35,239 nt of DNA from positions 1-35,239 of the IMG/VR virus record IMGVR_UViG_2718218139_000010; one strand, written 5' to 3'. The position numbers are program-made. Shown here one piece after another: positions 24,001 through 30,000 of the stretch; the first letter of the stretch is position 1; every line of letters starts with the position of its first letter. The DNA comes from a virus (lineage: Duplodnaviria > Heunggongvirae > Uroviricota > Caudoviricetes).

Positions 24001-27000
24001 TCCCGCACACTGCCGGAGTATCATGATTTCAGCCCAGCACCACTTCTTCCAGCCACTCACCGCTGCTGCTCTCCGGTCGCGGTAGTATCCCGGAGAATAT
24101 CCCGACACTTGTTCAGCTCCCTCAGCGCGGCGCAGACGCGCTGCCACTTCTGGACATGATTTTTCGCCCGACGCAGTTCGCGGTTTGCCATATGCAGCGA
24201 TGGTAAAACCCGGTAATTCATTCGCTTTTCGGTAAACGACGGCAACGACTGCACAATGTCCGCCACAGTTTCTGTTTTAATATCTTCCTGTGTTGCAGCT
24301 TCCTGTACTGGTAACGCAACGCCGGCTGGCTGAGGAAAGGCTTTGCCATCGGTTTCCGCTACGGCTACGGATGCAGCTTCCGGCTCTGCCGGTAAATCAG
24401 CGCCCGGTATGCAGTAACGAAATTTACCGTTCTGGTTTACGCGTGCCAGCCGCCCCGTGGCGGTTACTACCGCCAGCGTGGAAGCAACCTTGCGAGTGCT
24501 GACACCGAACTTACCCGCCAGTTCCTCACACGTTTTAGCCCCCTCCTGACCGATAAACTCAATCATCATGTCAGCGGTAACTTTTTGTTCGACCTCCCCG
24601 GTCAGCACATCCGGTACTTCAGATTGTGCTGGCTGCTCTTCGGTTACCCCGGATTCACCTTCACCAGCCAGAAACCAGGTGCGACCCGTTTTATCAACAA
24701 CACCATTTCTTTTCAGTTCCCACAGCTCGTTCAGCATTTCTTCGCGACTGATATCAAGTCGCGCAGCCAGCTCTACCGACGTGGCTTTCCCCATTGCTTT
24801 CAGTGCGTCAAAAACAGTCTCCATTAAAATTTCCTCCCGGTAAAAATCACTTCTCAACTCAAACAAAACCAGCCGCTTTCCGGCGTTCATATTCCTGTTT
24901 CAGCAACTCAATTGGTGTTAACCCCGACGGGCGTTTTGGTGCTGCCAGTTGCCGCCGGACTGGCGGAACGCTCAGGCCGTTACCAACATGCTTTGCCCAT
25001 TTCGTCAGCTGCCGTTCCGCAAGCCGTTTTAACTCCCCTTCGGTCATCTGGCGCTCAATCCCCTTTGAACGCATCTCGAGGCAAATGTGATACAGCACAG
25101 GCTGAGACCACGGATATTTATCGCTTCCGTCGTATCGCCAGGACTCGTTGCGCCAGCGGCGGTACTCCTCCATCACGGCATCCACCGTCAGACCGAATGG
25201 ATTGGCTCCGCTTTCCGAAATCAGCGCCACAAACTCAGCCAGGTCCGGAGGCCATGTTTCACCCGCCCGGCAGCGGTCCATGCACTGCCGACAGACCTGT
25301 CGGATTTGCTGCTCAGTCATCGCGCCAATCTGTGCAATCCAGAGCTTCGAAGGTGCGGCCCCGTTCTTCTGGGTCCAGCGGTTCGAATAAACCTCCCCCA
25401 TGAGTTCCCACAGCTTCCAGGCCGTTTCCGTCGCTGATAAATCCGTTTTCACGTTCCCACTGCTCACGTGCTGCCCGAATTTCCTGAACTGCCCGTGATG
25501 CGGTGCCACCTGGTGCTGCTGCATGGTTTACCCCCTTGCTGACAGGTTTAACCTGTGCCCTGACGTGATTTACGTGACGGGCGAATTTCTGCTCCCACTG
25601 AACCTGCGTGAACACTTTCCCCTCCGCTGCCCAGTAATCCCGGAAGGCGGCAAGTTCAGCAGGTGTAAATTCTGGTTCCGGCAGAGCCACTCCCCACAGT
25701 GCAGCCCGTCGTCGAAAATCCGGCGACGGATGCCAGCCATCGGTCATCGGAAATTTCCCGATGGGTTCGCTCAGGCCTTCCAGGTAATCAGGTTCCGCTG
25801 CCTGCAACGGCACGCCATTCGACTCACTGGCCGGAGCACTCTCGCGCACGCGCGCGTTATGTGTGGGGTTTAATTCTTTATCTGTATCTTTATCTGTCGT
25901 GACTCGTCGTGACATGTCGTGACATATGCGTGACTCGTCGTGACACCCCTCATTCTGTTTTCGTGATTTTTCCCTCTCGCGCTGCGCTCTCTTGCGCTCT
26001 GCCGGGGATTTCGCGGTTTGAGAAACGTTACCGTTGTCCTCTTTCAGTACCTGGCGTTTTTCCCATCCAGAGATTAAATCTCCATCAAGTACCCGCCCCT
26101 GCATTGCCTGTAAAATTGAATCAATTACTTCTTCCGTCACATCAAGCGCACTTGCTAAATCTTCCGTCGTGACATCAATGTGACCACGTAGTGACACGCC
26201 GTGACACGTCGTGACATTTCGTGACGCACTCACCAGAAGGTGGATATACACAGCCATCACTGTTGCGATTGGCTGCCCTGACACCCTGGCAATTGTTCGC
26301 CATTTAGGATCATTTGGCATGTCATGCCATAATCTGAGCCAGGCGTTAGCCATACTCACCTCTTCTGATACTGAATCTTTTTACTCGCAAATTGCCGGAA
26401 GTGATCCGGTATGAATATTGCCAGTCAATGCACAGCTACAATATTTCCTGCCGGGCCACCGCGATTCATCTGATTGAAACCAGCAATTACCACCGCGACA
26501 AGTTCATCAGCGTCTCTCACCAGTCGTTCATGCGTCTCCACCAGTTCCCGAAAATAAGCGGAACTGTGGCTGCGCATCCAGGCCACCAGCGGAGGTGGCA
26601 TTGCCTTTTCGATCGCTGGTAACAACGCCTGAATTTTTTTAACCGCATCAGGGGTGTCTTTCTCCACCCAGCGGAAAATTTTCTGAGTATTGCGAGCCAG
26701 GGCTTCCGGGCGTGAATCGTCGTACAGTTCCGGAAACGTCATTCCCAGTTCAAAATATGCTTTGGTAATCTCTGCAGCCGGTACTTTTTCGCCGTCCGGA
26801 TGCGCCCAGGCATTCATCGCCATGCGGATGTGTTCATGCTTGATTTTCATGAATCAACTCCGGTGCATTTGATGTGTTAACCTTACATCCAACAGGTAAA
26901 CCGTCGGTTGGGTTAGGATAAATATCAGGGCGAATTTCATGCGGGGTAACTTCCCACTTCATTAGCTGACATAACGGAATTACCTGCTTTGGGGGAACGC

Positions 27001-30000
27001 CAAAGCTAAACCATTGCCAAACAGTCTGTTGAGAGCCCCCCATATAACGACCTATTTCAGCTTGAGTGTATTTCTGCCTAATTTTTTTGCGAGTGCTATC
27101 TAGCATTTTGCCCTCCTCTAAAAAACTATAAGCAAAGCCTACAATAAAAAACTGTACACAATCAACAGTTTTTTATTGTGATGCTTTTAACAGTATTTAC
27201 CTGTAAAATTGAATAATGATGAACGCCCTAGAAGTATCTATGTACAGAATCAGCAAGCTTCTTCAGGAAACTGGATGGAGCCAGGCTGAGCTTGCCCGTA
27301 GAATTGGTGTGACACAACAAACTGTTCAACAATGGGTCAGCGGTAAGGCTACACCTAAAGCCTCAAGTTTGGATAAACTGGTTGAGGTTACAGGGCATCC
27401 ATTGCATTGGTTTTTATTGCCTCCTGAAGAGGGGGAGCAAATTTTCACCCCTGACACGATGAAAATTGGTCCTCGTCAACGCGAACTGCTCCAGGTTTTT
27501 AGTGCGTTTCCAGAGGAAGACCAAGAAAAAATGCTTCAAGAAATCAAAGACAAGAAAAAATCAATGGAAGAAACCATTGCCCGGTGGTTGGCGGCACAAA
27601 AAAGCCGCCGGGCGTGACCACTGTACAAGAAGAGGAGTTATGTCATGAGTACAGCCCTTTCTCCGATAGTTTCAGAATTCGAAACTACCGAACAAGAAAA
27701 CAGTTACAACGAATGGTTGCGCGCTAAAGTGGCGTCAAGCCTTGCAGACCCTCGTCCCTCAATTCCACATGACGAGGTAATGGCTGAAATGGAGAATCTT
27801 ATTGCTCAAATTGCTGTAACTAACAGGAGCGAGTAATGTTACCCATTTTATGGCTACCATCTGCTCGCGATGATTTGCGTCAGATTGTAGCCTATATTGC
27901 TAAGGAAAATATTCCTGCAGCACGCAGACTAAAAATACGTATTGAAACGTCTGTTTTAGCCCTCTCCGAGCATCCATATCTATATCCGCCAAGTGATCGA
28001 GTATCCGGTTTGCGGGAAATTGTGGTTCACCCTAATTATATCGTTTTGTACCGAGTAGCAGCTTCAAGCATTGAAATTGCAAATATTGTGCATGCCCGCC
28101 GACAATTTCCCTTCCCTATCTGAACTGAACAATTTTCATACTCCCTCATTCGAGGGAGTTTTTTTTTGCTCAACACAACAATTAAAAACTGTTGACATAA
28201 AACAGTTTTTAATTGTAGATTATTTCCACCACCCCACCCCGCCCCGCAGAATGCAGGGCAATACTTCGAGTTACCCGGCAGTGGTCAGGGGTTAAGTAGC
28301 CAGCCCGAGGCGTAAGAACATGACGGCAGGGTTCAACTTTAACTATGCAGCAGGTTTTTGTTCCGCTACCCCGGCGTTAAGGGGAAATGAGGTCAGCATG
28401 GATACTATCGAGCTTGGCAACAACGAATCTCTGGTATACGGCGTGTTTCCCAACCAGGACGGCACGTTCACCGCGATGACGTATACCAAAAGCAAAACGT
28501 TTAAAACCGCAGCTGGCGCGCATCGCTGGTTAGCAAGAAACACTGACTGATGAGGTTGACGATGGAATTTAAAGATTTACCTCCTTCAATCCAGGAGATT
28601 GCAGCACACACACTTCGTCATCGTCTGAACGAACTTGAATTGGAATCGGTAACAAAAAAAGACACTGATAATATGGCTCGTAATGTGCGCGATGCGTTTA
28701 CTGGGCTGTTTTCAGATACAGCTTTAAATATCCATGGCACAGAGGATACAGCAAAACAATTTGCAGAAAAAGAAGTGGAAGATCTCAGTTCAAAGAGCCA
28801 GAAACAGCTAAACAACCATGAAATTAACGAACTGCTTCTGGCAACAGGCTTCATAAATATTAACGAATATGACCGCCGTAAAAAAATGTTATCTGATCAA
28901 TCCATCAAGATATCTTTTTAGCATCAGCGTTTCTACGTTATTAAAACCATCAGATTTTAACATAGCTTCGATTCGCTGATTTAAATTGCCAACTAACTGT
29001 TGATACTGAGTAGATGGAAGCATGTGTACCAGCTCTTTGAGAACACAATAACATGCACCAAGTTTTAACTCCTGCTCTGACATTTTATCCTCCATTGAGG
29101 TTACTGGTTGAGAATGGAGACCTCTCGTGACAGCGTGTGGTCGTGCGCCGGACACGGATAAGAATCCGGCACTGACAGTTTACTGAAAGGATATATCCCT
29201 GAAAAGTCAGGGCATAACACGAAAGTGCACGGCGAGATTCCTTTGCATATAAGGCTTGTCGTTAAATTTCTTCGACCGTGCACTTCCGGTTGTGGCAATC
29301 CGCGAAATGGCGCGGCGGTAAGTATGGCTGGGGCTTCCTCCATTGCTCCAGAAAATGCGCCGGGTTGTCAGGTTGACCATACGCTTAAGTGACAGCCCCG
29401 CCACAATACCCATGTGTAGTCTTTGGTGGCATCAGTTCGACTCCGTGACTGCTCTGCCACCCTTTTTAAAGTGAATTTTGTGATGCGGTGAATGCGGCTA
29501 TGCGCACGCGGAACAGTTAAATCCGTAACGTGGTCTTTTACGGGGCATAACGGGCATACCTCTGTATTCCGGCGTTAATTGTTAACTGGTTAACGTCACC
29601 TGGAGGCACCAGGCACTGCATCACAAAATTCATTGTTGAGGACGCGATAATGGAAACGTTATTACAGAACGTTAATACGTCTGAAGGGTGTTTTGATATT
29701 GGTGTTCTGCTCAGTAACCGGGAGTTTACTGAAGATGCCATTAAAATGCGGAAATATGAACCTTATCTTCTCAATGATAATTCCATACTTTCCCGAATTG
29801 CCCTTCTTAAACTTGGTATTTTCGGGGGGCAGCAGTGACTTCTGCATTTGCACTGGTAATGACTGTTTTTCTTATAACGGGTGAGCCACAGAATGTGATT
29901 ACCGGAATTTATGCCAGTAAAGAATCATGCCTCCGGGCAAGAGACGAGCAAAAAATTTCTGGCGAATGCCTCCCGTTAAAAAAAGTATCGCTGTACCTGA

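Follow-up and report, generated by a model that had tools for sequence, protein, structure and literature searches.

Immunity Regions with a PaaA–ParE Pair

A described system of the same type as the locus reported here is the immunity region of prophage CP-933P, in which PaaR2 is the analogue of CI, YdaS that of Cro and YdaT that of CII (Jurenas 2021, PMC8630535). We analysed a stretch of 35,239 nt from a Caudoviricetes record (IMG/VR IMGVR_UViG_2718218139_000010), hereafter the window, with all coordinates counted from window position 1; its genes for a repressor, the PaaA antitoxin and the ParE toxin, opposite ydaS and ydaT, very probably constitute the immunity (lysis–lysogeny switch) region of a degraded Rac/Qin-like lambdoid prophage, of the published PaaR–PaaA–ParE/YdaS–YdaT type.

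The family was originally described as a three-component toxin–antitoxin (TA) system, with full operon repression reported to need PaaR2 plus the PaaA2–ParE2 complex (Hallez 2010, as summarised in PMC4803016). In CP-933P, PaaR2 and YdaS use common operators, which are located both in an intergenic region of 97 bp and at a PL-type (leftward) promoter beyond the TA pair, PL933P, which carries OL (left) operators; PaaR2 represses chiefly ydaS–ydaT and PL, the switch is bistable, and the paaR2 mRNA is leaderless, its start having been mapped to the A of the ATG by 5' RACE (PMC8630535). The region stabilises an unstable plasmid by post-segregational killing, and plasmid stabilisation and SOS induction on overexpression are the only phenotypes reported for the family (PMC8630535). 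The YdaT tetramer binds TTGATTN6AATCAA at the ydaS end, as determined by footprinting (Prolic-Kalinsek 2023, PMC9986795). E. coli O157:H7 is reported to carry two such systems, the homologous one, paaR1–paaA1–parE1, being placed on the cryptic prophage CP-933M (Hallez 2010; PMC8630535 introduction); the PaaA1 and PaaA2 antitoxins of the two are reported not to cross-neutralise (PMC4803016).

Five Intact Genes in the Published Order

An initial sequence-only reading had placed five genes at 26425–28123, and all five are found there as intact, full-length open reading frames (ORFs). The minus strand encodes ydaT (26425–26850; 141 amino acids), a CII-analogue transcription factor, and ydaS (26834–27106; 90 amino acids), a Cro-analogue helix-turn-helix (HTH) regulator. 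Diverging from ydaS across an intergenic region of 109 bp, the plus strand encodes a CI-analogue repressor of 133 amino acids (27216–27617), composed of an XRE-type HTH and a DicA/PaaR-type C-terminal domain, followed by the paaA antitoxin gene (27645–27836; 63 amino acids) and the parE toxin gene (27836–28123; 95 amino acids). The HTH regulator gene thus lies directly 5' of paaA–parE on the same strand. It is separated from paaA by 27 nt, within which a ribosome-binding site, AAGAGGAG, lies 7 nt 5' of the paaA ATG, and the parE start overlaps the paaA stop as TAATG at 27834–27838. No plus-strand terminator-like site was found between the three genes; an intrinsic terminator follows only after parE (28140–28168, plus strand), with an 8-bp stem (28140–28159) containing five GC pairs and then nine T residues. 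The gap, the overlap and the 3' terminator fit the co-transcription proposed earlier for the repressor and the TA pair, and the three genes are likely to form one transcription unit. The repressor in the CI position, opposite ydaS and ydaT in the cro and cII positions, corresponds to the roles demonstrated experimentally for CP-933P (PMC8630535), and the arrangement as a whole is the immunity type already described (Hallez 2010; Jurenas 2021).

Similarity of the two small products to PaaA2 and ParE2, the point on which the first reading could have failed, is strong. The 63-residue product matches the solved PaaA2 (3zbe; E = 1.5e-22), Pfam PaaA2 (PF21217; E = 1.1e-21, residues 16–48 of 63) and NCBIfam NF050103 (E = 8.9e-28, over the cut-off), and Pfam and NCBIfam searches detected no HTH or ribbon-helix-helix DNA-binding family in it. 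The 95-residue product matches the solved E. coli O157 ParE2 (5cw7_B; E = 1.2e-37, residues 1–93) and Pfam ParE_toxin (PF05016; E = 6.6e-16). The pair can be placed among the PaaA2/ParE2-family type II TA pairs, its presumed toxicity and neutralisation being carried over from CP-933P.

YdaT aligns over its full length with the CP-933P YdaT structure (PDB 8bt1; E = 6.9e-74) and with PDB 3c4r (E = 3.6e-85); it matches Pfam YdaT_toxin (E = 4.6e-9) and YdaS matches Pfam YdaS_toxin (E = 6.2e-9), the models for the pair being PF15943 and PF06254. These names had raised the possibility of ydaS–ydaT as a second TA pair, which we rejected: the CP-933P YdaT is a non-toxic, DNA-binding tetramer and its YdaS is Cro-like (PMC8630535; PMC9986795). 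Database names are misleading for this locus, where "Toxin YdaT" and "YdaS toxin" stand for CII- and Cro-like regulators and "RelB antitoxin" for PaaA. The repressor itself matches Pfam HTH_3 (E = 1.7e-13), the 434 repressor among solved structures (E = 2e-5) and the NCBIfam DicA profile over residues 11–130 (E = 1.4e-14; 54 bits vs a curated cut-off of 101 bits), and Pfam and NCBIfam searches detected no LexA/CI-type autocleavage domain. PaaR2 is absent among the solved structures searched with the repressor, and the corresponding protein search returned no match bearing that name.

Comparison with the Two O157:H7 Types

As a paaR2-type reference we used a locus from Escherichia phage Evi, found by tblastn with the solved ParE2 sequence. 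It is taken as paaR2-type on three grounds: identity of ParE to the solved ParE2 is 100%, the regulator has MQKKE as its first residues, matching the published N-terminal sequencing of PaaR2, and the intergenic region is 97 bp long with GTTTAGT repeats. An O157:H7 locus matched through ydaT (L006) was also considered as a candidate for CP-933P; it belongs to a different prophage, without a TA pair. The second reference was the O157:H7 TT12A locus next to yccA (L002).

The sequence-only reading had likened the locus to paaR2–paaA2–parE2. For the arrangement this holds, and the paaR2 locus shares with the window gene order and orientation, PaaA and ParE at about 65% identity, the YdaT operator motif, likewise at the ydaS/ydaT junction, the conserved C-terminal domain of the repressor, the spacing from −10 element to ATG, and an operator-flanked PL-type promoter after parE. 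The specific assignment to paaR2 does not hold, the locus being much nearer to L002: repressor identity is 34% to Evi vs 97% to L002, YdaS 18% vs 96.7%, PaaA 65% vs 90.5% and ParE 65% vs 86.3%, with YdaT at 91.5% vs 88.7%. The BLASTP alignment with PaaR2 from Evi is confined to 98 C-terminal residues of the repressor (42% identity, E = 9e-22). It leaves out the N-terminal part that binds DNA, and the two HTH regions are unrelated in sequence. The operators differ as well, with GTTTAGTAA-type repeats in the 97-bp region of the paaR2 type and ACAATAAAAAACTGT-type palindromes in the 109-bp region of the window. L002, in contrast, has the five genes in identical order and the same OR and OL palindromes as the window; it differs in that the window locus is mosaic relative to it, with the divergence lying inside parE.

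As O157:H7 has two systems and the ParE of L002 is not the solved ParE2, L002 is presumably, by elimination, paaR1–paaA1–parE1 of CP-933M. A literature search linking CP-933M to yccA returned nothing. The specificity module of the window, comprising the repressor HTH, YdaS and the operators, would then presumably be that of the second O157:H7 type, paaR1, and not that of paaR2. Because HTH, YdaS and operators differ, the window type and the paaR2 type are predicted to be heteroimmune.

Candidate Operators and Promoters

The assignments of operators and promoters given here are candidates, drawn from repeats, motifs and their positions. In the divergent region, a right-operator-like element (OR), ACAATAAAAAACTGT-N9-ACAGTTTTTTATTGT, forms a perfect 15-nt inverted repeat at 27141–27179, and a left-operator-like element (OL), a 16-nt perfect inverted repeat, lies just past the terminator at 28178–28216. 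The two 39-nt palindromes have 32 positions in common (82% identity), and the window holds four half-sites vs 0.42 expected, a number that none of 100 shuffles reached. The OR arms are kept in L001 and L002, where the loop varies save for TTGAT. Enclosed by OL, a PL-like promoter on the plus strand (TTGACA at 28192–28197, 18 nt, TAGATT at 28216–28221) has 10 of 12 consensus matches, corresponding to the CP-933P PL933P promoter with its OL operators (PMC8630535). It is directed away from parE, toward DUF1391/ydfA, DicF, a DicB-like ORF and exonuclease genes.

With the PL-like site as a model, a candidate rightward promoter (PR) can be placed on the minus strand (TTGATT at 27165–27160, 18 nt, TAGGCT at 27141–27136), its −35 element falling in the OR loop at the conserved TTGAT. 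Reading the sequence further, we found weaker outer half-sites at about 27116–27128 and 27191–27203, symmetric about 27160. For the repressor gene, a candidate repressor-maintenance promoter (PRM; plus strand, feature 27204–27218) has a −10 element, TAAAAT (27204–27209), 6 nt 5' of the repressor ATG at 27216, and no ribosome-binding site precedes this ATG. The spacing equals that of phage Evi and CP-933P (GATAAT, 6 nt, ATG), where paaR2 is experimentally leaderless, and the repressor mRNA of the window is by analogy probably leaderless too.

A candidate YdaT operator, OM (TTGATTTTCATGAATCAA, 26840–26857), spans the ydaS stop and the ydaT start, with the motif and the position footprinted for CP-933P YdaT. 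TTGATTN6AATCAA has this single match without mismatches in the 35-kb window, and two other matches each carry two mismatches. Five immunity types were compared (window/L001/L002, L003, L004, Evi, and Rac-type L005): the operators change in step with YdaS and the HTH of the repressor, and conservation extends to PaaA, ParE, the C-terminus of the repressor, and YdaT with its site. For the paaR1-type immunity specificity, which is unstudied, the palindromes predict an operator that can be tested.

A more far-reaching suggestion, which we regard as possible if rather doubtful, is that the paaR1-type geometry is unlike that of lambda and paaR2: the palindrome arms would bracket the −35 elements of PR and PL, the outer half-sites would lie over both −10 elements, and one repressor oligomer would sit at OR and OL, 1037 bp apart, looping out repressor–paaA–parE. 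Separately, and offered with the same reserve, the position that follows the repressor may serve in general for the exchange of defence or addiction cargo in Enterobacterales prophages, with PaaA–ParE acting in a Rex-like exclusion.

The PaaA–ParE Pair as Removable Cargo

Full-length repressor homologues, 70–82% identical, occur opposite ydaS–ydaT in Salmonella, Klebsiella and Serratia without paaA–parE, and the Rac-type locus L005 and the other O157:H7 prophage (L006) likewise lack the TA pair. Since the same repressor family occurs without it, the pair is best seen as optional cargo in a rexAB-like slot. Judged from these loci, the repressor belongs with the ordinary DicA-like repressors of prophages, and the TA pair is a removable cargo, in agreement with the 2021 reinterpretation of the "three-component" system. 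What the first reading had said of a TA module at the rexAB position thus stands; the three-component operon that it named is better not taken as a dedicated unit.

In lambda, cI–rexA–rexB and cro–cII show the same divergence of repressor from cro/cII-type genes, operator sets that flank the repressor operon, accessory genes transcribed along with the repressor, and a repressor mRNA that, like the one proposed here, lacks a leader. The window differs from lambda in that its products, the HTH fold apart, do not resemble CI, Cro, CII or RexAB in sequence, in a cargo that is a ParE-family TA pair, and in a repressor without a detected LexA/CI-type autocleavage domain. The DicA/DicC region of Qin in K-12 is alike in that the DicA profile aligns with the repressor over its whole extent, at a score below the cut-off, and in its left operon with ydfA (DUF1391), DicF, a DicB-like ORF and DUF1482; we know of no TA pair after the repressor there. 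Rac-type L005 has racR opposite ydaS–ydaT and the same leader downstream, and differs in the absence of a TA pair after the repressor.

The opposite possibility, a self-contained three-component TA system whose regulator is dedicated to the pair and is not the prophage master repressor, is the one originally described, and the reported need for both PaaR2 and PaaA2–ParE2 in full repression speaks for it (Hallez 2010; PMC4803016). Its probability is, in our judgement, very small, given the homologues that stand opposite ydaS–ydaT with no paaA–parE beside them, the match to the DicA profile over the whole length of the repressor, a second operator copy that encloses a promoter for a dicB-type early-left operon, and the finding that PaaR2 primarily represses ydaS–ydaT and PL (Jurenas 2021, PMC8630535). 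A related proposal, in which PaaA–ParE would have a docking site of its own in the C-terminal domain of the repressor, accounting for the reported co-repression, was rejected as a strict coupling, homologues without the pair having the domain, which is common to DicA.

The contents of the slot vary between relatives. In Klebsiella (L009 3484–4247), it holds two overlapping small ORFs of 84 and 170 amino acids, hydrophobic-looking on reading of their sequence; a 112-residue ORF is found in Salmonella (L010 3577–3915), and about 1 kb without called genes in Serratia (L008 3400–4394). The alternative cargos have no Pfam match in precomputed tables and no PADLOC match.

RexAB is a membrane-acting exclusion system, and PaaA–ParE, in the equivalent slot 3' of the repressor and read with it, might likewise be chiefly an anti-phage cargo (abortive infection or superinfection exclusion) and not mainly an addiction module. 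Slot contents that range from two small membrane proteins in Klebsiella and an ORF in Salmonella to none in Serratia are the pattern of a swappable accessory-gene slot. Nevertheless, no PADLOC defence model matches PaaA, ParE or the alternative cargos, the repressor receiving generic HTH matches only, and the phenotypes reported for the family are limited to plasmid stabilisation and SOS induction (PMC8630535); we consider a chiefly anti-phage function unlikely, while noting that the anti-phage and addiction roles are not mutually exclusive. Addiction is the role we favour for the pair, and the coupling of prophage maintenance to toxin control suggested for this locus would, by analogy, be the published proposal of plasmid stabilisation and addiction.

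Conservation and Mosaic History of the Locus

At least 80% of the 1.7-kb locus is held by 489 of 5426 complete E. coli genomes (about one in eleven), and hundreds of E. coli genomes have an annotated copy that is nearly identical; in E. coli ETEC1703, ParE is 100% and the repressor 99% identical to the window. Ratios of nonsynonymous to synonymous divergence (dN/dS) against relatives are 0.06–0.09 for parE, 0.10–0.17 for ydaT and 0.12–0.18 for ydaS and the repressor, and with dN/dS this low we infer that the genes are maintained as coding sequences.

Relative to L002, nucleotide identity is 94–100% from ydaS to the parE start and 74–75% inside parE, and dS is 1.45 for parE vs 0.08 for paaA; toxin and antitoxin genes therefore differ in history within one operon. 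A recombination breakpoint lies inside parE (window 27885–28085 vs L002).

A Proposed Switch and Its Weak Points

In the model proposed here, regulation, leaderless translation, toxicity and addiction are carried over from the CP-933P experiments and added to the gene content, gene order, homology, operator-like repeats and exact YdaT site observed in the window. The 133-residue repressor, in the CI role, would bind the 39-nt palindromes at OR and OL, shutting off the rightward ydaS–ydaT–replication genes and the leftward ydfA–DicF–DicB–exonuclease genes, and would probably regulate its own leaderless transcript. YdaS, in the Cro role, would act on the same operators, and YdaT, in the CII role, would bind at 26840–26857 and drive an alternative transcript toward the repressor. 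PaaA and ParE would be read from the repressor transcript, at the place of rexA–rexB in lambda; PaaA, without a DNA-binding domain, would neutralise ParE by wrapping around the toxin. Upon loss or replacement of the immunity region the labile antitoxin would decay and ParE would damage DNA metabolism, with SOS induction; the region would be addictive because PaaA decays and ParE acts once the region is lost.

Several observations weigh against this model or its details. The −10 element of the candidate PR, TAGGCT, is weak, and a consensus promoter scan gave nothing at threshold in the 109-bp intergenic region. The window has one large palindrome with weaker outer half-sites, and the paaR2 type four evenly spaced 18-bp repeats; because operator architecture differs, bistability and other quantitative behaviour may not transfer from paaR2. 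The prophage is broken up by insertion sequence (IS) elements, including one situated immediately ahead of the integrase gene, and there may now be little left for the switch to control. The assignment of L002 to CP-933M and paaR1 leans in part on what we take to be the positions of the O157:H7 prophages. Finally, ParE2 activity was not detected in steady state in CP-933P (PMC8630535).

This last observation would also be in keeping with a decaying remnant, a dead prophage with genes that are intact merely by chance and with neither the switch nor the TA pair working, and so would the three IS insertions and a short terminase ORF, with which the prophage is probably cryptic. We find such a remnant hard to believe, considering five full-length ORFs, low dN/dS, intact operators and YdaT site, a ParE 100% and a repressor 99% identical to those of another E. 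coli lineage, and the CP-933P version, which is cryptic and experimentally functional. A working immunity region remains the preferred reading. The locus adds to what is known a paaR1-type specificity assignment, a predicted operator and evidence of the TA pair as removable cargo, and little else that is new; the arrangement, regulators and structures are already published, and the locus is real but ordinary and of low interest.

Prophage Context and Neighbouring Elements

The window is a degraded lambdoid prophage containing Q, RusA, O- and P-like replication genes, the immunity region, a left operon and an integrase. Replication genes follow the divergent ydaS–ydaT, with a DnaT-domain O-like gene at 25313–26359 and a lambda-P-like gene at 24859–25524, and the left operon comprises ydfA, DicF, the DicB-like ORF, DUF1482 and exonuclease genes.

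Directly after the PL-like promoter lies a leader of about 110 nt (28226–28335, plus strand). Every heteroimmune relative examined retains it at 85–97% conservation, Rac-type and Salmonella loci among them and Serratia in part; these loci have different operators and repressors. For the leader, RNAalifold predicted two stem-loops, with compensatory change in 4 of 23 pairs. A possible role is that of a cis-acting element for antitermination or processing of the early-left transcript; an identity with HK022 putL is unsupported by sequence, as blastn against HK022 was empty and no Rfam family matched. The 76-residue ORF that follows (28320–28550, plus strand) has a DUF1391 match spanning residues 28–74, and relatives annotate a YdfA-like protein of 51 amino acids; the ORF is probably over-extended, with the likely start at an ATG at 28398.

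The DicF small RNA (sRNA) is found at 29411–29462 (plus strand; Rfam, 55.9 bits), followed by a 62-residue ORF (29650–29838, plus strand) that is, from a reading of its sequence, a candidate DicB-like cell-division inhibitor. Because both lie downstream of the PL-like promoter, they are probably under the control of the repressor and held off by it. Two further sRNA genes, AgvB (an anti-GcvB sRNA; 91.7 bits) and STnc100 (143 bits), stand back to back at 17840–18095, near the late region.

The IS elements comprise two IS3-family copies (13405–14561 and 32879–34035), with the same ORF lengths (100 and 272 amino acids) and identical Pfam scores, and an IS66-family element (5889–8305). At the prophage end, the minus strand encodes an NleC-like zinc protease (1–987; Peptidase_M85, 8e-113) and a SopA/NleL-like E3 ligase with pentapeptide repeats (1241–3613), which form a cargo of type III effectors.

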